This document shows, piece after piece, positions 4,234 to 20,800 of a stretch of DNA of 64,000 bases. The notes beneath the pieces were generated by a model, which did not search any database, was not told the DNA's origin, and saw nothing but the letters and a program-made list of their open reading frames with translations. Every line of letters begins with the position of its first letter. Within the stretch, counting starts at the first letter, position 1. The DNA is from Lingula anatina (lineage: Eukaryota > Animalia > Brachiopoda): assembly GCA_051362555.1 (NCBI GenBank), contig CM120640.1:68798788-68862787 (forward strand), written 5' to 3'. Made by a program: the position numbers and the translations under genes.

Positions 4234-7200
4234 ATGGCCAAAAGAATTACACAGAAAACATTTGATGATGTGGTCTGTGAAAACATGCAAGAGTTTGACA
4301 TGTCAGCAGAAGAGGCACTGCAGGAAGCTGAACAGCAGTTTCTGGCACAGGTAGAATTAGGGGATGGGAGGGGCTAATGTGCAGTAGTTGTTGCAGTCAA
4401 ATTGGTAAATTACAGTACAAGGTGAAGTGTGTTATAATCAGCAGATAATGTTTTCTGAATTTATTTTTTCATTGACTTGTATAAGACAATTGACCCCAAG
4501 GACATGTTTAAGATATTTCATTAGTCACAAATTAAAGTGCAGCATCATAAAGATGCTCTTAACATCAATGTTTTTTCTCTAGGGAATAGACCTCAGCAAC
4601 ATAGTCAAAGACATCAGTTCCCACACTGGAGAGGGGACCACACACCCAGTGGTTGCTGCTGTGCAGAATCTCAGTGGTGTTCTAGACAGTGGAGATATAG
4701 ATCCTACCACAGTGAAGGCAGCTTTAGCTCAGATAAAAACAGAATGTGATATAGATCTCCCTCATAGATGTCTTGCTGGTAGCAACAAGGCATACCCTGT
4801 ACTCTTCAAATTATGTCAGAAACTTTCCTCTGACAAAGAACTTCTGAAATGCTGTGTGGATGCCCTCAGTTCACTTCTGAATGGGCAGCCTGACCTGGTG
4901 GACCAGACTGGTATAGAGTACTTCACCAACTTGCTGAAGGACAGTGAAGAATCTGAAGAACTCTGTGAAGCGCTTGTAAGGATGATTCGTTTGACTTGTG
5001 TCATGCATGAAAAGAACAGACAAGCTTATGTAGAACAGAATCTTATTTCTGTACTCATCTCTGTTTTGACTGCACACCAGAAAAGTGCTGGGATTGTGAA
5101 AGAAGTATGTTTTGCATTACGTGTTTTAACCTTTGATGATGATCCAAGGGTCCCATTTGGAAAAGCTCACGAACATGCCAAGATGATAGTGGCAGAGGCA
5201 AATGCTTTGAAGGTGATATTGGAGACGTGTAATGGTAAGGATCTGATAATAATGAGTCAACATCAAGAAAGTGCATGATTATTCATAGATTCTGTAAACA
5301 TTTCTGTAACTTCAAAGTCAGTGATAAATGCAAAATAATCGACTGTGCAAATCATCAAACATTTTGATATTTTTATTCTTCTTATATCTGTTGGATCAAT
5401 TTTAGGCTTTACAGGGGATGTAGCTGTACTTGGGGAGCTGTTTGCAACTCTGAGTAAACTTGCTGTCAGGAATGAGTTTTGTCAGGAGATAGCAGACAGA
5501 GGGGGTTTACAGCTATTGATGACTACCCTCACTGAAAACATGCATCACCAGGTGAGTTCTTTCTCTGCTGTTAAGAATAAAGTGTTGAGATATCAAATAA
5601 AGTGGGTTCTTACTCTGCTGTTAGGGATGAAGTTAAGGGATAAAGCGTGTGTTAAGATATCAAATTATGTCAAAACATATAGTTTTAACTTATGCATGCA
5701 AACATGAAATCTTATTGATATGGACAGGTTTTTTTTTCAAAGAATTGATTATTTTTTTGCCTGTGGTCAAAGCATCAAACCTTGGAAATAACAAAGAAAA
5801 GATGCCAGTCCATCAGGTAGAGCTTTCCATCACATACTTGCAGACAAGGTACTCGGTAATGGGCGATCTCTGTGACAGAGCATTCATCTGTATTTTCAGG
5901 GTTTAGCCAAATATTCCATTGGCTTGATGCCAACATCATACATTTTCAATTCATGGCAAATGTGTCTGGCTGTCAGATGGTTTTTCAAGAATACCAGCAA
6001 TCTCTGTGAGAAATATTTCAATACTTCTGTATTTTCAGGGTTTAGCCAAGCATTCCATTGGCTTGATGCGAACCATTGCAGGGAATGACAATGTGAAGGC
6101 AGCTATTGTGAATGCTGGTGGTGTGGAGCTGATTGTGGGAGCTATGGGGACACACCAGGCACAGCCTCAGGTAGAGTGTGTCATCTTGTTCTTATTTATT
6201 ATAACTAATAGGTGCTATATATGTAACAGTCACTGAGTGTTATAGTGTACTAATACCAAGTACAGGTATCATACTTTGTGTACTTTTTTTTGGTCGAGAC
6301 TGGCATACCTGTATTTTTTTTTTTCAGTCTATCTATGAGTTAAAAGTTAAACATAGCTAAATATGTGATCAGTGTTTTTTTTTTTCTTTTTTTTTTTTGT
6401 TGGTTTCCTTGAAAATGTTGATTTCCTAGTCATTTAGACAATAAATATTTTATGTCAGATATGTGAGAATGGTTGTGCAGCTTTGGGAACACTTGCCCTG
6501 CGCTTACCCCCTCATTGTGCCAAAATCGTGAAATGTGGAGGCCATGAAGTCATTATCCAAGGGATGAAGATACACAAAGATGTCTCTGCTGTGCAGGTAG
6601 CTACAGTTATTAATGGAAAATGAGCAAATACACAAAATGCACTTGTCACATGAAGCATTATATCTATTCAATTACTGCTTGCTTAAAGGGGTTCCTCCAC
6701 CTTATTACACTACAGGGGACTTTATTCTCTTTCACAAATTTGTTACAAGTTTGCCTCCTCGCAAAGAAACATGAACAACAAAGTTTTCCCTACTTCACCT
6801 AAGCACTTCAAGTTACAGATAATTAAGCTGATTACATTGACCTTGCCTTGGCTGAGATATGTCCATCCTGCTGGACTGATAACTTTTAATCTAAACACAC
6901 CCCTGTTGACATACACTTTAGAATTAACAAACTTCATACCCTAGTGAAGTAAAAAAAATACTAAACAAGTATCAAAAGAAAAAAATATATATATCTTGAA
7001 AGAATTTGATTTTATAAAAATAATGCTCATATCCAGATTTTGACACAGTTTGTTGCACCCCTTCTTTAGGTTTGTTTAAGGCATCCCTGATGCTGCTTCA
7101 AGAAAAGGTACCAAAAACTTTTATTTTGATAAAATTTTAAAATGATGTTCAAAATTCCCATTTTCAGAAGCAGGCTTGCATGGCTCTGAGGAATTTAGTA

Positions 7201-7380
7201 GCTCGTACCAGAGAATACTGTGATCCAATCTTGGAACTTGGTGCGGAAGGTTTGATTAACCTGGCCTACCAGCAACATAAAGATTGTACGGATGAAGCCA
7301 AGAGTGCACTCAGGGATTTAGGCTGCAAAGTGGACTTGATAGAAAGATGGAAAGGAGAAAGGGGAGAAATTTCTCAGTGA
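4234..7380 (+). CDS. ARMC6: Armadillo repeat-containing protein 6, 6 coding exons, 465 aa
   Basis: Exons 4234-4350, 4583-5234, 5406-5551, 6039-6170, 6459-6596, 7168-7380 (1398 nt, GT-AG, phases consistent). Recognisable ARMC6 motifs: MAKRITQKTFDDVV.EN..EF, GIDLSNIVK, LTFDDDPRVPFGKAHEHAKMIV, LAVRNEFCQ, IAGNDNVK, KQACMALRNLVAR, AKSALRDLGCKV.L.ERWKG. Confidence 0.93.
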
Positions 7381-9281
7381 GGAGAAAAATGGTTGTCTTC
7401 CAAGTCCCCATGACTCTGATCGTATATATACTGTGAACACAAATGCTGGAACAATTTTGTAGGAAAAACTTTAGTGTAATGTAGTATAACACAAACCAAG
7501 CTGAAAGGAGGAACTTATTTAAAAGTCATAATATATGTTGTTTATAAGTTATTGCTGTGATTTTTTTAAAGTGAATAAAAAGAGATTGACACTGACAATC
7601 CCTCACATGAATCCAATACCCATTAACAATAACAAGTGCTGCAATATTTTTCCAAAGAATGTTTTTTTATTATACAATGATATAGTCCACATGTACAAAA
7701 CTATTACATACATACAACTATTACTATACCCCATCTTTTCCATAGTGTTAGAACAACACCCGAGGCTATGTACATTAAATTAGTATTGTTCAATATTTCA
7801 TCATCTGGCAGCTTCTAAAGCTGCTAAAATACTTTAAATTTTAAACTTTGGAAGCACAAATAGGCTGGTTGTGGTTTCTGGTGTTGTTTTTAAGTCTTTC
7901 ACATTTTGAGGCATTTGTTTAACGTAACCACATTTAATTGAGCAAAGATCTGCTACTTGTATCTTGTATGTTTCTCTGTGCCTGCTGTATTGAAAGAAAA
8001 ACATTTTAAGTTTCAATCTAACATGAATATTGGTGAACCACCTAACCTACCTTTCCTTTGCCTTACTATGAATACCCAACTACATGGAAGATATGAAACT
8101 GAAACTATTCTTTTCAAATTGCACTACAAAAATAAATTCTAATTGTTGTGGACAAAACACTACCTACCTAGTGGTTCAATGTCTACTTAGTTCCTTACCA
8201 GTATTTGCTACTTTGATTTGGCATTTAAATATAACTACATTAATAGGCAAAGTTCAAATTACTTGTCAATGGATGTCTTTCTGATAATACCTGAAAAAAT
8301 ACAAAATACATCAATTTTCTTCCAAGTTACCCAATCACCTCTGAACAAGCAGTGGGCTCAAGATATGAAATGGCATATAAAATGTTTAAATTCATAAGTT
8401 GAAACTAGCACCTGCTCACCTTACACAAAAGAAGCCAATTACCATAATATGGATGGAACACAAATTGAATATCAAATGTAACACTGATGTGAATAAGAGA
8501 TACAATTTATTAGCACAACTTGAGGAAAAAAATGAAAAGCATTAAAGAACTGTCAGCCCTCTAATACTTAATTATAGAAGTGGTTTTGAACTTGCTGTAC
8601 ACCGTTCTTTATTCTCAGCTTATAAAGTTCGTTTTTGACAATTATAATAAAACCACTTGGTCTTCTCAAATGTAACAAAAATAAATTAAATGTATCCTGT
8701 ACAATCCTGCAACCATAAACATACTTTTACTGATGTTGGTGAACAAGTTCTTATGCCTCAACATTCATTGCATTAAGAACTATCTTGAATTATAAACACC
8801 GCATACACAATAACAATAATAATGTATCTCTGTACAACATTTTTCATCATTCACAGACATGATATTGGGTTGTAAATAGAAAGGAAGAACTAGCTTGGTG
8901 ACCGAATGACTGGGGGCTGCTTTAGGCTGAATACCACCCAGAAAAAAGTCTTAAATTCATGAGCTTAATGTTACATGTTCACTAAAAAATAAATGGCTCA
9001 AAATTTTGGACAATATTCTCAATTGTTCCCAGTGCATACATTATTGCAGGTACACAAGTGTACTAAGATTGGTTACATCGTTATGCCACCAGCATTTGGT
9101 AAAACACAGGCCACTGTATTCCTTGTACTTTTTTCTTTAAAAAAGTAACATTAACACATTTTGGAAAATATCTTTGTTCACTTTAAACAACACATGTTAT
9201 CTCAGTTTTTACTCAATCTTTGGACTCTGTAATCAGACTCTACTCTGAAACAATATAATTGGTGTAACATGAAAGTGAAAT

Positions 9282-12200
9282 TTAGTAAAAACGTTTTCTT
9301 GAATTTTCCTGTGATTTTTGAAAGATGATAAAGCCCACCATAAGGCACACTCCTATGCCTATGATAATGAGTATGATGACCACTAACAGCTTCCAGCCAG
9401 ATAAACTGTTCAACATGAAGGCCCCTTTGGCATCATCAACATGGTCTAAAAATAATAACATCAATTATCATGGACTATTTTAAATATACAGAGATAAACA
9501 CAGTTCACATTTAATATACGAAAATATATGTTTATGATCCATTTTTAATTTCTACCTGATGGGCAAATTGATTCTGAAAAACTTTATTGGAATGCAAAGT
9601 GCCAAATAAAATATTCTCTCTTTCAAGTAACAGCATATTTGCCTCTCACACTATGCAATAAAATGAATAATTTAATCTTTACTAACCTCTCGGTGAAGCA
9701 AAAAACTGTGCAGATGGTTCTATTTTGGAATAATCAACACCATCATCTTTCTGAAATTAATAAAATGTTACACTTTCATTACCACTAATAATCTAATGAA
9801 ATGGTGTGATTAACTTTCAGTCACTTTGAAAAAGACTGAAGGCAAAAAACATCACTATAAATGTTACATTTGCAGCTAAAAACACAGACTTTTTTAATGA
9901 GTGCTTAATGAGTTTTTCAGAGGGTCACCATGCCCAACAAAAAGTTTCTTAGCTTAGCTTTTCAATAATATCAAAATGGAAGATATAAATCTCTTCACTA
10001 AATTCAAACTGCACTTACATGTAATATCAATACTTACTCTTTCTGTTTCCAGTTCATAAAATTTAGCAGAGATAATATCATGGTTATCTGAAAATAAATA
10101 GAATGTATCAAATAACATAAAAAGCAGTCCCAGAAACCTTTGGCATCAAAATATTGATTAAATGATGCATCTTTTATACTGTACTATCAAACATGTCATG
10201 TTCTAATCACAATATATAAATATGAACATCACTTTTAGTCATTCAAGAAGAGGAAAACACTTATGGTAAGAACTGCATTAATATATATAAATATTAAAAA
10301 AGAACTAAAAAAAAGTGTCATTTCCAGCTAAGAATTAAAAAGTTAAAAAGTTAAAAATATACAGCAATGTTTGGAAACACAAAATTGTTTGTTAAAATAA
10401 GATAAATTCATCCCCTGTCACATGAAAGCACTCCCATTGTAATCCAACACATAGGAATATTTTGACAGACTTTCAAAGCTGATAACCCAATGTTGTTACC
10501 CAGTATCATGGACGTGCAGATATATATGACACACCCCTCAAATTAACTTAAAAGTCCCACAGCAGGTCTAAGTCTATTATTTCATTACATAACATCAAAT
10601 CAAAAGATTATAAAAGCTTTATACCGTTTTTCATACGTACATTAACCCACTAGCACTACAATGACAGCTATAAACTAAAGGTAAAGTTATAAGTGAATGA
10701 GTGTTATAAACAACAAGCATAAGTTCCACAACCTTCTATGAGCACACACTTAATAGATGGAAGAAGGTTCTGAATTGAATGAGCAATTCGGATATCCCAC
10801 AATCCCACTGATAACAAAAAAAATTTGAAATCAGCAACAGAAAATGGAAATAATAAAATCAGTTATATATTTTCTTAAATATGTGATTGTGTTCCAATCT
10901 GGTTGTACCTGCGAGGTCTCCCGTTGCAGCAGAGAAGCCCAGATAATAGCCAGTGGGCAAATGTACACCTTTCACTTTAAAACATTCCTTCCATTTATTT
11001 TTATTGTTAATGTCTGTGGATACCTGAAAATGGAATGTGATGAAAATCTAGCACTACAATGTTTGGCCTCTAGTTCTACATCATGCTCAAATGACTTGTA
11101 TTTAGGGAAACTATAATTAGTTCTTCCCTATATTCAAGATATAGAGTTTCATGCAACCATTAAAATGGCTCATTCAATAAATTTGGCACCATTCAGTGAA
11201 GGTAGGCTGACATAGGTTTAAAAAGCTTTCTGGTCTTACTTAACAATTCAAAAATGAAAATTCAAAGCTTTCCTCGAAGCTGACAGTAGCATGCCAAACT
11301 CTCAAAAAGACCTTTAATTAAATTTTTCATATAAATATATTGAATAAACCAAATAAGGTTGCATGAAAAAGAAAGTTTCCCACAAAAGTTCATTTAAGCC
11401 ATTTCACTTCAATGAACTTAAATGCACTTCAGCTGAGGTTGATAGGGAAACCAAACACAGTGCAGCATCTACAAGACAGACAGTGTTAAGTGAGGCACAG
11501 CACTCCAAATGTTAGGGCTTCTCTCCATGCAGAGCTGGTTGGTTAATTCATCTCCACTTGGAGTGACCTTTTTGTACCTGCTAGCTGTCCAGTGGCCGCA
11601 CTGAAGCCTAAATAATAGCCAGTGGGTAGATGGACACCTTTCACTGTAAAACATTCTTTCCATCCCCCTTTGTTATTTATGTCGGTTGAAACCTGGATAA
11701 TCATGTGGAGCAAAAATAACCTGTCATATGCGACACCTTTGGATAAATCAATTTCAGTTTGTCAATGTTTCCAGTAAATATGGATGAATATCAATACATA
11801 TATTTTTTAGATAAGCAATTTTTTCATCTAGACAAAATTGACTACTTTATCTGGTCTAAACATTAAATGATTAAGTTCTACTTTAACAAGTCTTGTTAAA
11901 ATTCACAGCTTTTTGGTAAAATAAACTGCTTAACACCATATTAAAACTTACCGTTAATGTGTCATCAGAATACCTGACAGCAACATAAGTGTCGTAAGCT
12001 AAATTTCTAAACAGGGCCTCACAACCTGCCAATTCTGTGTGTGTGCCATCAGCATCGTGATCATAACCCATTGTACCATTGTCCACCATGGCAGAGATAT
12101 AGGGGTGTAGATGCTGAAATACAAAACTAGTTGAAATTTATTATCCATACCAACAATTGAAAGCATACCAGCTAAATTTAAGGCTACTTTTATAAAGTCA

Positions 12201-14885
12201 GGTGAAGTGGCTTAAAGGACATTCCCATTCCACCTGCAAGCATCACATTATTTATGGTGTGAATGCATTTCCATTTAATTATCTAAATGCAGCCATTAAT
12301 GCCTTCCTTAAGACTGAAATAATGCAGTCAGTGCATAATGTCAGTGCATCAGGTTTACAGTCATTAAATAAACTGTCCATAGCTAGTCAGAATCTATTTC
12401 TTGCTAGTGGAGTAAGAAGAGCAAAGCTGTAGATGCCAGCCCAGCAAAGGATATTATTATAGACAAATGGTGGCAAATTAAAGGGAAGAAAAATAGCTGT
12501 GATTTCCTTGGATTTATGATAGCACTTATCTGGATAGACTAGGGGCAGCCTAAGACTACCCAGCATCAAGTGCAAAGCAAGATAGCTGACATGCATTAGA
12601 AGTAAAAGAACAAATATTTCTGATGTCCAAGAGACAAGACACTATCTACCAATTGCTTGGCTACATATAATGGAAAATATTATATGGTTATTGCCTGGTT
12701 TCGGCTTTTTGCAGGGCATTGGTTAACCATAAAAGTAACAATTTAACTTAACATTAAGTACAAATTTCTCATTGGTAACATGTTGTGTGGAGATATACCC
12801 ATCAAATGAAACAGCACTTTAACTGATTGTAATAAAATTACATAGCCATATTATACCACACTTGAGGATTTGTATCCAGCACAGTTGGGATGTGAGAATC
12901 TTACATTAAGCAGACCGGCACAAGCATGATTATTAACACAATATCATAAAAGAATGTCTACTATTTGTAATCCCCCAGTCACTTATGTTAAATACAAGCC
13001 TCGTACTTACATTATGAGGACCATTGTGATTGCTGTAGGTGTCCATGAAAATAGCCAGGCCATGGAAAAAATTTTTGCTGCCAAATACATCTCCTGAAAA
13101 TGAGGCACCAATAAGAAATCATTATGGTATTTTCAAAAAGACTGTTGACCTTGTTTTTAAATTATTTTCAAACTAACTGTACAACAAATAAGTTATACTG
13201 AAAAATGTGTACAGATTTTAAAGGAATTCCATAATATCTATTACAGCAATTTATTCAAAATTTGTAGATAAATATGCCTCTATTTCATCCCTTCATACAC
13301 CCTTCATAGGCACTATCACCTGGCCATTCAGGCAGTGAATATTACCATATAATAAGACTGCTCTTACTTACCCATTGTCAGTCTCTCTTTAGTGTACCAA
13401 ATGGCAAAGCCATCGCCAAATAAATTTGTCCCCTTTCCATGCACCTTAAACTGTATATGTAATTCCCAATCTCTGACAAGAACAGGCTGAAATATTCAAG
13501 TGAAAACTTGAGTTCAAAAAATCTCTATTACTTTCCATACACAGAAACCCATGCAGGTGCCTGTGTTCAACTTCTGGTAAAATCATCATTGTTCTATTCG
13601 AGTTCCTCTGGAATTTCAAATTTAGTAATATAAATTTCACCCCACTTTTCTTTTGTTGAAAGCATATTATTCCAAATTGATTAAAACCATATTTCACTGA
13701 ATACAAAACATTTTTTCAAAAATCAGTAAATATCTAATACTCAGTATTTTTTAAATAAATAATTTTTTCTGGATTAATAACTCACATGCTGGTTCCAAAG
13801 ACCTCCCTTCATACTCTGATGATCTGATGTTAAACGAATGTAATTATTGGTAAGCATTGTACTCCCTACAAAGTCCCATGGAGTTCCTGAAAAACAATGA
13901 CAATAAAATAACTATAACAAATGCTGCATACTGTTTACTAGTAAGCATCACCAAATACTGAAGTAGGTTCCACTGATTGTTTTTTTAAAAGTTTTTCAGT
14001 TATTATAATGTGATAATATGTATCTCTTACTTTAAGGATTTTACCAATGATTTTGATAAATATAAGCCAAGTAAATGAAAGACAACCATTGCCTTCAATT
14101 TATGCAACAGTTTTCAAATCACATCTCTGGTTGGTCATGTTCCAATTTAATTCTGACTGAACAAAACATCAAGCCTGCTTCAGGGAATAGATAGTTGTTT
14201 TAAAATTGCTCTTAAGAAATTGGAGAGGTAATACTTCACTTGAAATGGGTTTTGCCTTGAGTTTAGCACTGGTCTCTAACTTGATACATGTACTTATTGG
14301 CATAAAGAAACAGGGCACAGGACCCCTGTATCCGACCCCTTTAAGGTGCTGAACATCGTTAAAAATTAAATAAAATATTGAGGACCCCCTGATTTTTACT
14401 GCACTCATTCCACGCTTACCCGAGTCTATGAACATGCAAATTAATGACTAATATGTTATCGACTTGTGGCAAAGCGCAAAGTCGTGCCAAGTTAATACCC
14501 CACGGCGTTATACTGAGTATATATCACAAAAAAACAACAAAGTTTCCACAGGTGTTAAATTAAGGACACCATTTCATGATTATTATCTAGAAAAGTAATC
14601 ACAAAACTGAGCATTACCTAAGTTTGTTCAGGAGAGATGAACTTACAGAAATTTCCAGTAACTGCGGACCAGGTGACTGTGCCACGCAGAGCACGACCGG
14701 CGAATCTTAGATTTCGCCAAGAAAAATACAGCAATTATTTAAGAAAACAATGTCTTACCCACATACGGCTTCACAAGGGAATGCTCCTTTTTCATATAAT
14801 CTCTAGTGTTCCATTCGGCAAAATTAACACAATACTGCTCAAATAAAATGAGCACTGCCACCACGGCCTTACTGATCGTCGCCAT
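9282..14885 (-). CDS. LMAN2: VIP36/VIPL-like legume-type lectin cargo receptor (LMAN2/LMAN2L ortholog), 9 coding exons per isoform, ~326 aa
   Basis: Exons 14885-14759, 13886-13786, 13486-13372, 13093-13011, 12113-11952, [11692-11578 or 11023-10909], 10087-10038, 9750-9687, 9445-9282 (981 nt). Signal peptide, KKEHSLVKPY, LFGDGFAIWY, GLAIFMDTYSN, YDHDADGTHTELAGC, LPTGYY.G.SAATG.LADNHDIIS, a TM helix and a cytosolic RKRFY tail. Confidence 0.93.
10909..11023 (-). CDS. LMAN2: LMAN2 alternative exon 6b (canonical GDL variant)
   Basis: TTTTCAG acceptor, 115 nt, VSTDINNKNKWKECFKVKGVHLPTGYYLGFSAATGDLA, donor G|GTACAA, phase 0 to 1. Confidence 0.9.
11578..11692 (-). CDS. LMAN2: LMAN2 alternative exon 6a (GQL variant)
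   Basis: CAG acceptor, 115 nt, VSTDINNKGGWKECFTVKGVHLPTGYYLGFSAATGQLA, donor G|GTACAA, phase 0 to 1. Confidence 0.85.
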
Positions 14886-14975
14886 GTTTGAACTTCCGCT
14901 GACGTACTTCCGTGTACCTGTCGCACTGCAAAACGCAATCGAGACGACACCAGTGACGTTGCCCCCTCCCCATTA
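14880..14975 (-). promoter_or_regulatory. LMAN2 proximal promoter motifs
   Basis: CpG-rich stretch. YY1-like AACATGGCG over the start codon, two ETS-like CGGAAG sites (+ strand CTTCCG at ~14893 and ~14907), and TGACGT CRE half-sites. Confidence 0.45.
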
Positions 14976-14991
14976 TCTTAAGAAGTTAAGA

Positions 14992-14993
<2 letters not shown>

Positions 14994-15029
<36 letters not shown>
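14994..15029. repeat. (AAT)n microsatellite
   Basis: About 12 perfect AAT units. Confidence 0.95.
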
Positions 15030-15030
<1 letters not shown>

Positions 15031-16479
15031 TTATACATATTTTACCATTTGTATCGATTTAAAACCTTTTCCTTATTTTAATATTAAAATAAACTATTAA
15101 AATAGTTCATCTTTGTTAGGCTCCTGTCTGAACCCATGGATAAATATTTTCATGAATTAGGCCTACATATAGGCCTAGTGCAAAATGTTTTTTGATAAGC
15201 AGACAATAAGGTCGCTGAATACCTTCTATACAGACGGGATGAAAACTCTGAAAATGGTATAAAAAGTCTACCTCTACCTGCACACGCGAGCCTGGCATTC
15301 TCTTTCACCTCGGACAATGACATGATGTTTATAAAAATTAAGGGACCATCATCAAGTGCAACAATCATAGGAAGTGTCATCCCGGCATTCATATCTACCC
15401 AATTATTTGTTATGGATAGGCTCCTTTTCACAGATATTCTCTGGCTATTCACTAGTTTTGCGCATTTCTGTTTTGGTGAGGATTTTTGCACCACAGCTAC
15501 GTCATCAACCTGTTGCGTCCTCCTGGTCCTCTGGTAGGCCCTACCCCCTAGCTGTGCATGTAGAGACTATAGATTCTCGCACGGGCATTGTTAACATTGA
15601 AATAAAACAGATATTGTGAGTTCAAGGCTATTGTTCGACGGTGCATTAATAGCAATGGGTTTATTTCGCTCATTTCACGCTTAGGCATAGATGAGTAACA
15701 AATTGTGTTCTAGTGCAACCGAAATTCTGCCTGAAATTCAACAAAAATTCTCGATCTAGTTTTATTTCGAAAGCTTATCACAATGGCGAAAGCACAAGAG
15801 ACAGTCTTACATTCTTTGTTTAAGTTATTTAATAAAAAGGGTCCTTTGTAACAAATGAGAAAAGAAAACACTGTGTGATTCTAAATATAGGCCCTACAAC
15901 TATGACTTAGGACGCAGGTTCCTCACTTTTGAATATTTTAACTATTAGCATAGCATGCGCAGATGAAAATCTTGTTTGAAATGGAAGTTAAATTAAAACC
16001 TTTCACAATTAAAACGTCAGTGGTGTATTTTTTTTTTTCGGTTAGGCTACAGGCACAAGAAGGAAAATAACTGGTACGACAAAATAGGCCTACTGCTTAA
16101 AACGGCTTTTGGTCGCGCTTTCTAAGTGTTCATTCTCAATATCATATTCACCGTAGTCACAGAATACGTTTCTTATTGTATATCTTATATAAAGATATTT
16201 TTCAAAAAAATTTTTTTTTCAATTTTGGTAGTCCAGAACCAAACAACTCGTTGTAATGAGCCTCCGTATGTAATTTCGAATAACAGACCCTGAATTTCGC
16301 AGTTATTACAATGTACATATAATTCATTAATGTTAATAATTATGTGTCACAAATTATGCATGAAAATTAATGTGCAACTTCTGGTTTCTCTCTTTTATAC
16401 AACCTGCAGGCTAGTGGACGCAGGGCCCAAAAGCTGAATGATTAAAACCCAAATATATCACACCAATATTCCCCTCTTT

Positions 16480-16671
16480 AAATTAAAATTTGACTAGCTG
16501 AATCATAGTCCAAAACCGTACCAAAAGGCACCGTGTGCCCACCAAAACTCCAAAAAATATTTCGGGACCCTTAAGCAGGCCCCGAACCCCACGCCAAAGG
16601 GACGATGGTCGCATCCGAGGCTTGTCGCTCCGCCCCCCCCCCCTCTTCAAATAATCCTAGATCTGCCCCTG
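16480..16671. mobile_element. Truncated non-autonomous DNA transposon arm
   Basis: Ends in a C-tract plus TCCTAGATCTGCCCCTG, a CAGGGGCAGATC-type TIR common in animal MITEs. No partner TIR was found. Confidence 0.5.
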
Positions 16672-17759
16672 AAATATGGCTTTGTGATTTATAGCTATCT
16701 ATTCTTCCATATTTCAGTTATTAAAACATTTTGACTTCATCAATTGTTAAATAACATCGGAATGCGACATTGCACACTAAGTCACCTGTTTTTACGTAGA
16801 TAGGCTACAAAATAATGAATTTCAGTCGGGATAAAATAAGGAACTTTCGGTACGGAAAGCACGTTTGTATGCGTTTGCTGTGCGTTTAATGCAGTAGTTT
16901 TCCTTCAGTAATAAAGTTGAAACCGGTCATTGAGGCCTAGGAAAGGTAAATTATATCATACAGTACTTAGGCCTACATGTAGGCCCCTATAGGCCTATAT
17001 CAATAATTTTGATTTCACGTCTAGTAGGGCCTATTCCAAAAGCAGTTTTGAGAATAATAATCGTTATTTAAGTTTGTCATGTTTAAATAGCTTAATCTGC
17101 AGTCTTATTTGTTAAAAATCAGAAAAAAATGTATTTAAATCGAAGTCACGCATTTAGTTTGATGGTGGTGAAAGGTGTTGATCTCGAGGAATAATAATTC
17201 CATATAGCCTAGGCTTAATGATATGTTTGAATACATTGTTAAGAATGAATAAATAGGACAAAAGTGCGTTTTGTGGAATTTTTGCCAAGACTTTTCCTAT
17301 TCTTACTGTTCTTATCCCATTTAATTTACAACAACTTTTAGATCAAACAGCGAAATGTAAACTGAAATAAAAGATGAAACTTTAATTGTCCCCCCCCCCC
17401 CCTGTACGTATTCGAGCGTGTTTGGGGTTAGATCTATAGTGCCCTCTTATTTCCACTTACAACGTTCTTGTTGTAAAAACATACAAGCCCTTCAGAGTCG
17501 AAAAGCGTTTTCAGAGGGAAAAAAATTGACCTTTCTAGGTGTAAATTATTTTTGAATATCCATCGATCCCCTTACAAAACTCACGGTATCTTGACACAAG
17601 GAAAGAAGAGGGGAATAATCAACAATAATTTAGTTGACTATCTGTCATACCTAAAATATTTAACTATCCGATAGTTTCATTGATCTAGGTGTAGATCATT
17701 CATCCAATGCTTTGTTTACGATATCGAGATCATCGATAGTCAAGTTGTGTGATTTTTTC

Positions 17760-17859
17760 GTGCAGAGGTGGCCCTTCCTGTTGATATTCAGCGCCCTCTA
17801 CCTATGTAATGAAGCATGCGCAGTCGTAACATAAAAGGTAGCCATTCAATACAGGGGAC
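17760..17859 (+). promoter_or_regulatory. TIA1/TIAL1 proximal promoter and 5' UTR
   Basis: NRF1-like GCATGCGCAG at ~17814-17823 and CAGCGCCCTCTA at ~17789-17800, directly upstream of ATG 17860. Confidence 0.4.
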
Positions 17860-20800
17860 ATGGAAGGTACGTAAAATACCGAATAAGTGTTGAATTTCAA
17901 AATAAATATTTATTTGAATACTTTTAAAACTGTTTTTCTTTTTGTTTCAGATTACAATGATGAATCCCAGCCACGTACTTTGTAAGTATCTGAAAGCAGG
18001 CGCTCTAAATTCTATGTCACGTCCAGTAGTTTACAGAGGCATGTTCAACCTTTAGTCATGTGAAACTTTAGAAATGACTAGATTCCGGTCTGCTTTACAC
18101 AAATCCCAGTCATTATATATTTAACCGAATCATTTCGTATTCCATTTTGTGAAGGTACGTTGGTAACCTGGACAGCATGGTGACAGAAAATCTCATCATA
18201 GCCCTTTTTGGTCAGATTGGTGAAGTGAAAGGGTGCAAAATTATCCATGAGGTGAGTTTTGAAACAGGAAGATGCAACAGATGCTTGAAATAAACCGGGG
18301 GGAAATACTCCCATTTTAACCACTGCTGCTCTTTTCAGCAAATACTTTTGCTCTTGAAAACAACAGCAGCAGATCAATGTTTCTTGTGCACTGATCTGGA
18401 GAAGTATTCATGATACTCGCAGCTGTGATTTGTGAATACCGTTCTACTTATTTTGTACATCTTTCTTTAATTTTGAAAATGAAAACAAAGCTGTCAATTG
18501 TGTTTTTGTTAGGAAATCCCACAAAACTGGCATGAGAAAGGTTTTTTTAAAAAGTACTATCAGTATTGAAGAGAACAACCATATGCACATGTTTGTTGAG
18601 TATATGATGATTACTTAACTTTTAAAACAATTTAAACCAATTATTTTGGACTTGATTTGATGTAAAGCACAAATTTTTATGAATTTTTTATGAATATATC
18701 ACATACTTTTAGATTAAGTTACTCTTATTTTTAACTAAAAGGCAACGTGTTAAAAACAAATGATTATTTTGGAAAAAATATTTTTGCATCAAAAATTTAA
18801 ATTAAAGTAAGTGAAAAAGGAAGTATATTGTGGTTGGTATTAATTTTTTTCTGTGTATGAAAATGAAAGGGTAAGTATACTTAGAGTTTATTCTTTTGTC
18901 ATATAAATAAACGTGTAGTCAAGAAGAAGTGAACAACATGGGCTTGGGAAGCAATAGGACATGTGGTATCTGTTTTTTTTTATACTTTAATTTTATAGAT
19001 AAAAAATTTACACTTGTTATGTATTGAAGTTCTGTTTTCTCACCATGATAGTGAGTGTTGAACAGACAACTCTAAGCTGTAAGGTAATTAGGTTTTCTTT
19101 TCATTATTAGCCCAGTTTCTTGTGTCCTAAATACAGTTTTTTTAATAACACTCTTTTGCAAGACAACCAACTGTTGTTACAGTTATTTCATGTTATTTGG
19201 TGTAGATAAATGATAGTTGGAAAACATTTTAAGAAAGCTAAGAAAAAAAGGCAAAATAAATAAACCCCAAGACCTTCAGTAATTATTAACAGACAGGTAA
19301 ATAATTTCCTACTGTAGTTTTATATAAAATGACACTGGTGGTAAGTATCAGTTTTGTTATTGAGTGTTTTCAAAGACTAAGTTGTACTTGAGGAAAACTG
19401 GGGGACATGATTCCTTAACCTTAGGTGAGACTTTTTATACATCTTTTAAACATTTTGTCCCCAAATCACTTGACACATTAGATAAAATCCTTGATAGCTG
19501 GAAAATTGTAAGGATTGATAGAACAAGGACAGTGGTATGTATCTTTTTATTATAATATTGTGTACTACACAGTTTCCCAAACTTCACTAAACTGTAATAG
19601 TAGAACACACTTGCTTAAGTTCTTGCCCGTCATTTCATTTTAATCTGTCGGACAAGTAGACCCTTTTAACTTTTTCCAAAGAAGATTTCAGTGGCTTTCC
19701 CCAGTTGTTATTTTTGCCGTTTGAGAATTTGTCTATAGCACCACTGATCTCTTGGAACCATATACCATTTTTCAGGTCACCATGACCAAAGCTTTCTCTG
19801 AAGAAATGTCAACATGACAATTGCTGCTTCCCCAGAAGGGTATTGCTTTTCATTTTCATTCACATATTGTGCCATATATTATATCATTGCAGCTTATTAT
19901 ATTATTGTACTCCTATGATATTCATAACTAAATTGTGCAATACACTTTTAGTTTAATATGAAATCAAACGAGCAAAATCTATCTATTTGAAGGGGTTGCA
20001 TATAACCTCAAATATTGTGTGATTTTGGTGCCATAACTGAAGTAGTTGGGGGGCTCAATTTTCAGTCTTGTGGCTCATGTGGACCACACTGAGAATAAGA
20101 AGAATGCCCTTGTTAATTGAAATTTAAAAAGCTATTGTCTACTTGGTTGAAAGTATTGAAAAAAGGAAGAATTGATCTGAAAAAGGTTTTTGACTACGAA
20201 GACAAATGTACTGTGCATCTTTCTGTTTCTTTTGTAAAAAAAAAAGTGCAATCAAATTAGTGTGGCTGTGACAGTTTAATGAGTATGATTTGGTTGGCTA
20301 ATTACAGTAGCTGGCCTCAACTAAATACATAGTAAATATGTTAGAATATCTAATTAGGCTGTAGTGAAAGTTTGTGACCTGGCACCAGATGCTACTGTAT
20401 CGTTATCAAACTTGGGCACCACTGGGGGAGTAGATAAAATACAGCGATAGTATTCAGATATTATTGACTTTACAGATCGGATATTTTTCGATAACATAAC
20501 ATTATAGCAGATTTGATATATTAAAAAAGAGCTGGTCATACTAAATTAAAGTGTGTGATAGCATTTATGATTATCAAGGAATAAAACAGAATGGTATAAT
20601 TTAATTGTGCTTGTACATATGTATTATTTTTGAAAATATGCTGTTATGTTGGTTAAGTTCCAGCTGCAGGGAATAGTTTTAAACTGAGTTTTTGCCACAC
20701 CCTCCTGTGAATTTTAATTAACTGTACACTGGGCTGCAACAGAATAATGGGTTTATCCAGTATATAGATGCTAAGAAGTTGAAAACGTTATTGAATTGGC

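Follow-up and report, generated by a model that had tools for sequence, protein, structure and literature searches.

The window, that is, the whole stretch of 64,000 nucleotides analysed here, contains on its minus strand the VIP36 gene of Lingula anatina. The spliced exon model matches both RefSeq isoform X1 (XP_013381018.1) and isoform X2 (XP_013381019.1): the product obtained with the first of two alternative exons (6a) is identical to X1 and that obtained with the second (6b) to X2. A shorter RefSeq isoform, X3, contains 6a. The features of the gene, in window positions, are the following:

14759..14885, minus strand: coding exon 1, with the ATG and the signal peptide, 127 nt coding (exon model, RNA reads and RefSeq match)
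13786..13886, minus strand: exon 2, with Ser67 (Ser96 of dog VIP36) and Lys69 (Glu98 of dog VIP36) (exon model and alignment)
13372..13486, minus strand: exon 3, with Asp101 (Asp131) (exon model and alignment)
13011..13093, minus strand: exon 4, with Asp132, Tyr134 and Asn136 (Asp162, Tyr164 and Asn166) (exon model and alignment)
11952..12113, minus strand: exon 5, 162 nt, constitutive in Lingula (exon model and RNA reads)
11578..11692, minus strand: alternative exon 6a, 115 nt, phase 0 to 1, ending in SAATGQLA; used in RefSeq X1
11024..11577, minus strand: intron between 6a and 6b, 554 nt
10909..11023, minus strand: alternative exon 6b, 115 nt, phase 0 to 1, ending in SAATGDLA (GEL instead of GDL in the animals of study P3); used in RefSeq X2
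10635..10655, minus strand: intron stretch complementary to bases 10968-10948 of 6b, a candidate regulatory duplex
10038..10087, minus strand: exon 7, constitutive, starting with DNHD (exon model and RNA reads)
9687..9750, minus strand: exon 8 (exon model and RNA reads)
9282..9445, minus strand: coding part of exon 9, with the transmembrane helix, the RKRFY tail and the stop (exon model, RNA reads and structure model)

At protein level, the legume-like lectin domain (Pfam PF03388) was recognised with 291-297 bits against a cut-off of 24, and a sequence search of the PDB gave E values of 4e-92 to VIP36 and 4e-38 to ERGIC-53. Ranks 1-12 of a fold search with a model of the protein were all occupied by VIP36. 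The initial annotation had called for both domains to be modelled; the predicted structure of the 6b form matches the VIP36 crystals (2DUO-2E6V) with an rmsd of 1.2-1.8 Å and 56% identity. The gene product groups with VIP36 and not with ERGIC-53. An N-terminal helix (residues 2-22), a helix at 289-320 and the RKRFY end, seen in the exon and structure models, give it a type I membrane topology with a short stalk and a short cytosolic tail. When the numbering of dog VIP36 is anchored by setting GDL at 260-262, Ser96, Asp131, Tyr164, Asn166, His190, Gly260 and Leu262 of the dog protein are aligned with identical residues of the Lingula protein, and most of these columns are invariant in 162 orthologs. 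The latter shares with mammalian VIP36/LMAN2 and VIPL/LMAN2L the fold, the sugar and calcium residues, the single membrane helix and the short tail, whereas it differs from mammalian VIP36 by a Lys in place of Glu98 and by the equivalent of residue 261, which is Asp/Glu or Gln depending on splicing. ERGIC-53/LMAN1 belongs to the same domain family and its GGL loop aligns with GDL/GQL; however, it has Gly at the site, a long stalk and, in the fold search, about 30% identity with the Lingula protein.

Exons 6a and 6b lie in tandem, are homologous, agree in length and phase, and both have valid splice sites. They had been described as two paralogous 115-nt exons with CAG acceptors and GTACAA donors, and this was verified on the minus strand, where 89 of their 115 bases are identical. 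The count of 15 synonymous and four replacement differences (G>N, G>K, T>K and Q>D) in 38 codons also proved correct. Within positions 5000-20000 of the window, no direct repeat is longer than the similarity between both exons (124 nt, 79%), which stops at the splice sites; in the flanks of 60 nt only 25/60 and 21/60 positions match, and no further copy was found by tblastn within the window. A Nei-Gojobori count gave pS 0.62 and pN 0.11 (Fisher p 8e-7; bootstrap 95% range of pN/pS 0.04-0.42), with a dS of about 1.3 and a dN/dS of about 0.09. The last two values indicate an old pair under purifying selection, in agreement with the initial annotation. The Gln codon (CAG, 11587-11585) and the Asp codon (GAC, 10918-10916) lie where they had been placed in the window, but Asp cannot be taken as a fixed residue of 6b, as Glu replaces it in the P3 animals.

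Nine RNA runs under the species label Lingula anatina were available, of which eight were used and run X2 was left out, the share of each run examined being only 6-30%. Reads at junctions 5-6a, 6a-7, 5-6b and 6b-7 were, in this order, 14/11/13/6 in run X1, 18/7/4/2 in X3, 12/6/0/1 in X4, 14/6/0/0 in X5, 5/4/0/0 in X6, 6/17/11/20 in X7, 4/10/21/28 in X8 and 13/10/14/9 in X9. All four expected junctions were observed and reads do splice into 6a. Both 6a junctions appeared in the eight runs, 5-6b in five and 6b-7 in six, and each exon was joined to both exon 5 and exon 7 in runs X1, X3, X7, X8 and X9. The eight runs together yielded 286 one-exon junction reads, 157 for 6a and 129 for 6b; neither the 6a-6b joint of double inclusion nor the 5-7 joint of skipping was listed in any of them at a threshold of three reads and two starts. 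The proposal that both exons are mutually exclusive is borne out by these reads and by RefSeq X1 and X2, whose only differences are G205N, G206K, T212K and Q232D.

The ratio of 6a to 6b varies between samples. By study, junction reads were 50:25 in P1, 47:1 in P2 and 60:103 in P3, the share of 6b being 33, 2 and 63%, respectively. Because one molecule can be counted at two junctions, the upstream junction was tested separately, giving 32:17, 31:0 and 23:46 (p 1.5e-9), or 24:13, 21:0 and 19:37 by distinct read starts. Exon 6b is present in the P2 animals, with one junction read in run X4 and, in run X6, two reads that cover the Asp codon. Differences between runs of the same study gave nominal p values of 0.046 and 0.007, inflated by the double counting. 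Regulation and genotype are not separable in these ratios since the studies differ in genotype, library and possibly tissue or stage.

Genetically, the animals of study P3 are further from the window sequence than those of the other studies. The codon at 10916 is GAA (Glu) in all their reads (21/21, 29/29 and 13/13 in the three runs), while reads of P1 and P2 give Asp. Among the best-supported variants listed, all five in 6a and three of the four in 6b are synonymous, and the sole listed replacement in 6b, from Asp to Glu, retains the acid. The contrast between an acid in 6b and an amide in 6a holds in both lineages. RNA editing was discarded as the source of this replacement, which is a C-to-A change found in all P3 reads alongside many other P3-specific differences. 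In exon 5 these animals have, besides many silent variants, two replacements (V>I at 11978 and A>V at 12052); together with the P3-wide Glu, these suggest a distinct population or a cryptic species under one label. As regards the order of the changes, a Glu codon in the ancestor would be a single base change away from both Gln and Asp, so that Asp in 6b may be recent.

The exon model was also used to follow the reading frame of each combination. Either exon alone gives a protein of 326 aa ending in RKRFY, whereas, as had been anticipated, inclusion of both leads to a stop after 239 aa (...GQLAGIHRH) and skipping of both to a stop after 222 aa. The stop of double inclusion lies 212 nt before the last junction, which makes such a transcript a likely target for removal by nonsense-mediated decay. 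That of skipping, at 33 nt from the last junction, would escape a vertebrate-type rule, and the absence of the 5-7 joint hints that skipping is probably avoided at the splicing step. Two mechanisms of exclusion were rejected: the 554-nt intron between 6a and 6b is too long for steric exclusion, and the AG-free zone has only 22 nt, too short for a distant branch point. The local folds at the splice sites were unremarkable (z 0.12, -1.61, 2.56 and -0.92). In a screen of nine region pairs for duplexes, the two best involved 6b (0/150 and 3/150 shuffles), and the intron stretch of 21 nt at 10655-10635 pairs with this exon at -28.5 kcal/mol, better than 150/150 shuffles. When 18 pairs of exon and flanking intron were compared with a simpler score, this duplex had a p of 0.008, but constitutive exon 8 scored better (0/500), so the 6b duplexes lose weight and are candidates only. 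The stretch complementary to exon 8 (9750-9687) in that control is a strong one and lies in its downstream intron, 9686-9446 (0/500 shuffles). In the intron between 6b and 7, at about 10338-10530, loose-ended and mismatch-rich reads pile up in four runs and resemble a dispersed repeat.

The counterparts of the swapped residue 232 in the alignment are Asp261 in dog VIP36 and Gly252 in ERGIC-53. PMC3912170 describes a bond between Asp261 and the 6-OH of Man(D1) and a contribution of this residue to affinity, which places residue 232, as had been claimed, at the mannose-contacting loop. That source further describes the pocket of ERGIC-53, without an equivalent of Asp261, as shallower, reports that the D261G mutant binds monoglucosylated glycans (citing Kamiya 2008) and finds that a modelled glucose clashes with Glu98 of VIP36. 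PMC6272264 gives the same account of Asp261, D261G and Glu98, and the contacts of the loop with the sugar are listed in bioRxiv 10.1101/092460. Regarding the rest of the pocket, Ser67, Asp132, Tyr134, Asn136, His161, Asp164, Gly231 and Leu233 are common to both forms and nearly or fully invariant in 162 orthologs. Residues 205-206 are located, in the predicted structure, in a loop between strands 194-200 and 207-214.

In a survey of 127 proteins, the motif was found in 126, with Asp in 86, Glu in 27 and Gln in 13. A larger set of 162 motif-bearing orthologs, from which 23 redundant isoforms or alleles, proteins shorter than 270 aa and proteins without the motif had been excluded, contained Asp in 106, Glu in 42, Gln in 14 and Gly in none. 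On the FastTree phylogeny of this set, built with the site masked and having many weak forks, residue 232 changed at least 26 times (mean of 50 and minimum of 44 with shuffled labels). Columns 205, 206 and 212 changed 23, 26 and 46 times, and the four swapped columns lie between the 72nd and 95th percentiles of variability. Even close relatives with a single isoform differ at the site, as Haliotis asinina (Asp) and H. rubra (Glu) or Argopecten (Gln) and Ylistrum (Glu) do. The column of Lys69, equivalent to Glu98, is also highly variable, with 41 changes and mostly Gln, Ser, Arg, Lys or Ala in the 162 invertebrate orthologs, and consequently glucose discrimination may not be general.

The initial annotation had concluded that one gene makes two receptors of different glycan selectivity by splicing. 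Its first half stands and its second half is not supported: the published switch, from Asp to Gly, is the loss of a side chain that Gln retains; orthologs exchange Asp, Glu and Gln freely at this site; 6b itself carries Glu in the P3 animals; and the Glu98 that would clash with glucose is replaced by Lys69. The Gly that marks ERGIC-53 at the Asp261 position is found in neither form, with Gln in 6a and Asp or Glu in 6b. Our preferred reading, to which we give a probability of roughly 55%, is that exon 6b and exon 6a are an old duplicate used in a mutually exclusive and sample-variable manner, both forms likely binding the same class of high-mannose glycans with a probably modest difference between acid and amide. 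A tandem duplication of exon 6 would have given the gene two full-length receptors by mutually exclusive splicing; at the rim of the mannose pocket, the side chain of Asp/Glu or of Gln would preserve the contact with Man(D1), in a pocket unlike that of ERGIC-53, and the exchange of acid for amide would tune binding at most. Both copies would have been retained because, in some samples, each accounts for a large part of the mRNA. The dN/dS of about 0.09, the differences in ratio and the conserved acid/amide contrast argue for this, as does the finding that the site is occupied in 162/162 orthologs by Asp, Glu or Gln, always a long oxygen-bearing side chain. However, the at least 26 changes at the site and the variability of the swapped columns fit near-neutral drift equally well, the studies are confounded by genotype, library and possibly tissue or stage, no mechanism of exclusion emerged from spacing, AG-free zone or duplex control, and the 50-nt junction rule assumed above may not apply to decay in Lingula.

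That drift is the core of a second explanation, clearly less probable than the first although the strongest of its competitors, in which both isoforms are equivalent, the duplicate survives only because the splicing signals have been shared out among the two copies, and the four replacements represent drift that the fold tolerates. The differences at the site between single-isoform relatives, the change from Asp to Glu in 6b among animals under one species label and the location of the replacements in variable columns are what would be expected from it, and an exon present in a large share of the mRNA faces purifying selection even when its product makes no difference. Nevertheless, both copies have been kept to a dS of about 1.3, although under equivalence the loss of one would be harmless, and neither the strong differences in ratio between samples nor the acid/amide contrast kept in both lineages is accounted for. 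A true specificity switch, in which the Gln form would relax the discrimination against glucosylated glycans or bind another set, providing a VIP36-like and a more ERGIC-53-like receptor, is possible, but we regard it as unlikely, and less likely than either modest tuning or equivalence. The exchange falls on the position known to determine specificity, at which D261G gains monoglucosylated glycans (Kamiya 2008, as cited in PMC3912170), isoform usage depends strongly on the sample and, with Lys69 in place of Glu98, residue 232 may carry a different weight in Lingula. Against this, the published effect comes from removal of the side chain whereas Gln is larger than Asp, 14 of the 162 orthologs have Gln with one listed form, and the Glu of P3 6b is one OH/NH2 exchange from Gln. 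Three of the four replacements (GG to NK in the hairpin loop and T to K in the strand) could instead carry the functional difference, by altering a partner or cargo surface rather than the sugar pocket. They add two positive charges, and the sugar contacts that the available portions of PMC3912170 and bioRxiv 10.1101/092460 mention do not include the equivalent dog residues, but their columns changed 23, 26 and 46 times in orthologs and no partner is known, which leaves this explanation very improbable. Finally, the near absence of 6b from P2 (1/48 junction reads) could recall a mis-assembled haplotype or an unused pseudo-exon; such an artefact is refuted by the reads joining both exons to exons 5 and 7 in five runs, and a dS far above the observed allelic variation and the dissimilarity of the flanking introns also speak against it.

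Mutually exclusive tandem-duplicated exons are found in tropomyosin, myosin heavy chain and Dscam. The Lingula pair resembles them in that the exons are homologous, of equal length and the same phases, and only one is used, but here the case affects a housekeeping ER-Golgi lectin and the exon covers one wall of a ligand pocket. The mammalian VIP36 and VIPL genes are not known to carry a duplicated exon, and a literature search found no such report. Outside Lingula, a duplicated exon 6 was not found among the search candidates, isoform pairs and metagenome loci compared, a set with no other brachiopod or phoronid genome. No second match to exon 6 was present in the best 80 of 341 metagenome loci, 79 of which match once, but most of these are spliced transcripts or compact genes and carry little weight here. 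The search with the 6a frame yielded three of 14 candidates (Lingula and two Octopus), and that with the 6b frame 11 short fragments, none above 82% identity. Eight X1/X2 pairs from other species (in 23 clusters) showed no exon 6 difference either, seven differing by indels or N-termini and one by a block in exon 5. This last pair, from Antedon mediterranea (VIP36-like X1 and X2, XP_071947642.1 and XP_071947643.1, 328 aa each), differs at 21 of the 54 residues from 145 to 198 and nowhere else. The swapped block corresponds end to end to Lingula exon 5, with the His190/Asp193 loop, whereas the Lingula pair is exon 6. Judging from the proteins, through which it is known here, the crinoid case is likely an independent duplicated exon pair in the same lectin domain, and it points to a way of varying VIP36 domains that may have been taken repeatedly.

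RefSeq already lists both Lingula products, by automatic annotation only. A published account of exclusivity, usage or function of Lingula VIP36 was not found, although MetazExp tables or the supplements of the genome paper may hold the event, and the pair is apparently annotated but undiscussed in print. The sorting of glycoproteins between ER and Golgi relies on intracellular L-type lectins, whose glycan preference is known to depend on one residue of this loop. A natural, expressed pair differing at this residue in a protein otherwise almost unchanged is a ready test of Asp, Glu and Gln, relevant to the many invertebrate orthologs with Glu or Gln. Should the two forms differ, splicing would be a way of regulating cargo sorting; if they are equal, this would be a clean case of a duplicate exon retained without new function. 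A broader and rather doubtful idea is that invertebrates repeatedly duplicate exons of the VIP36 sugar pocket (6 in Lingula, 5 in the crinoid) and that their regulated splicing produces measurably different glycan preference or pH-dependent release, by which cell types would retune ER-Golgi sorting using a single gene, a task for which vertebrates have two, VIP36 and VIPL.

Another duplication was observed in the neighbouring gene, on the plus strand, where a segment of 53 nt comprising a splice acceptor and the start of an exon is repeated at 5882-5934 and 6021-6073 with 91% identity. The copies are 139 nt apart, which is not a multiple of 3, and the upstream one may be a decayed duplicate.
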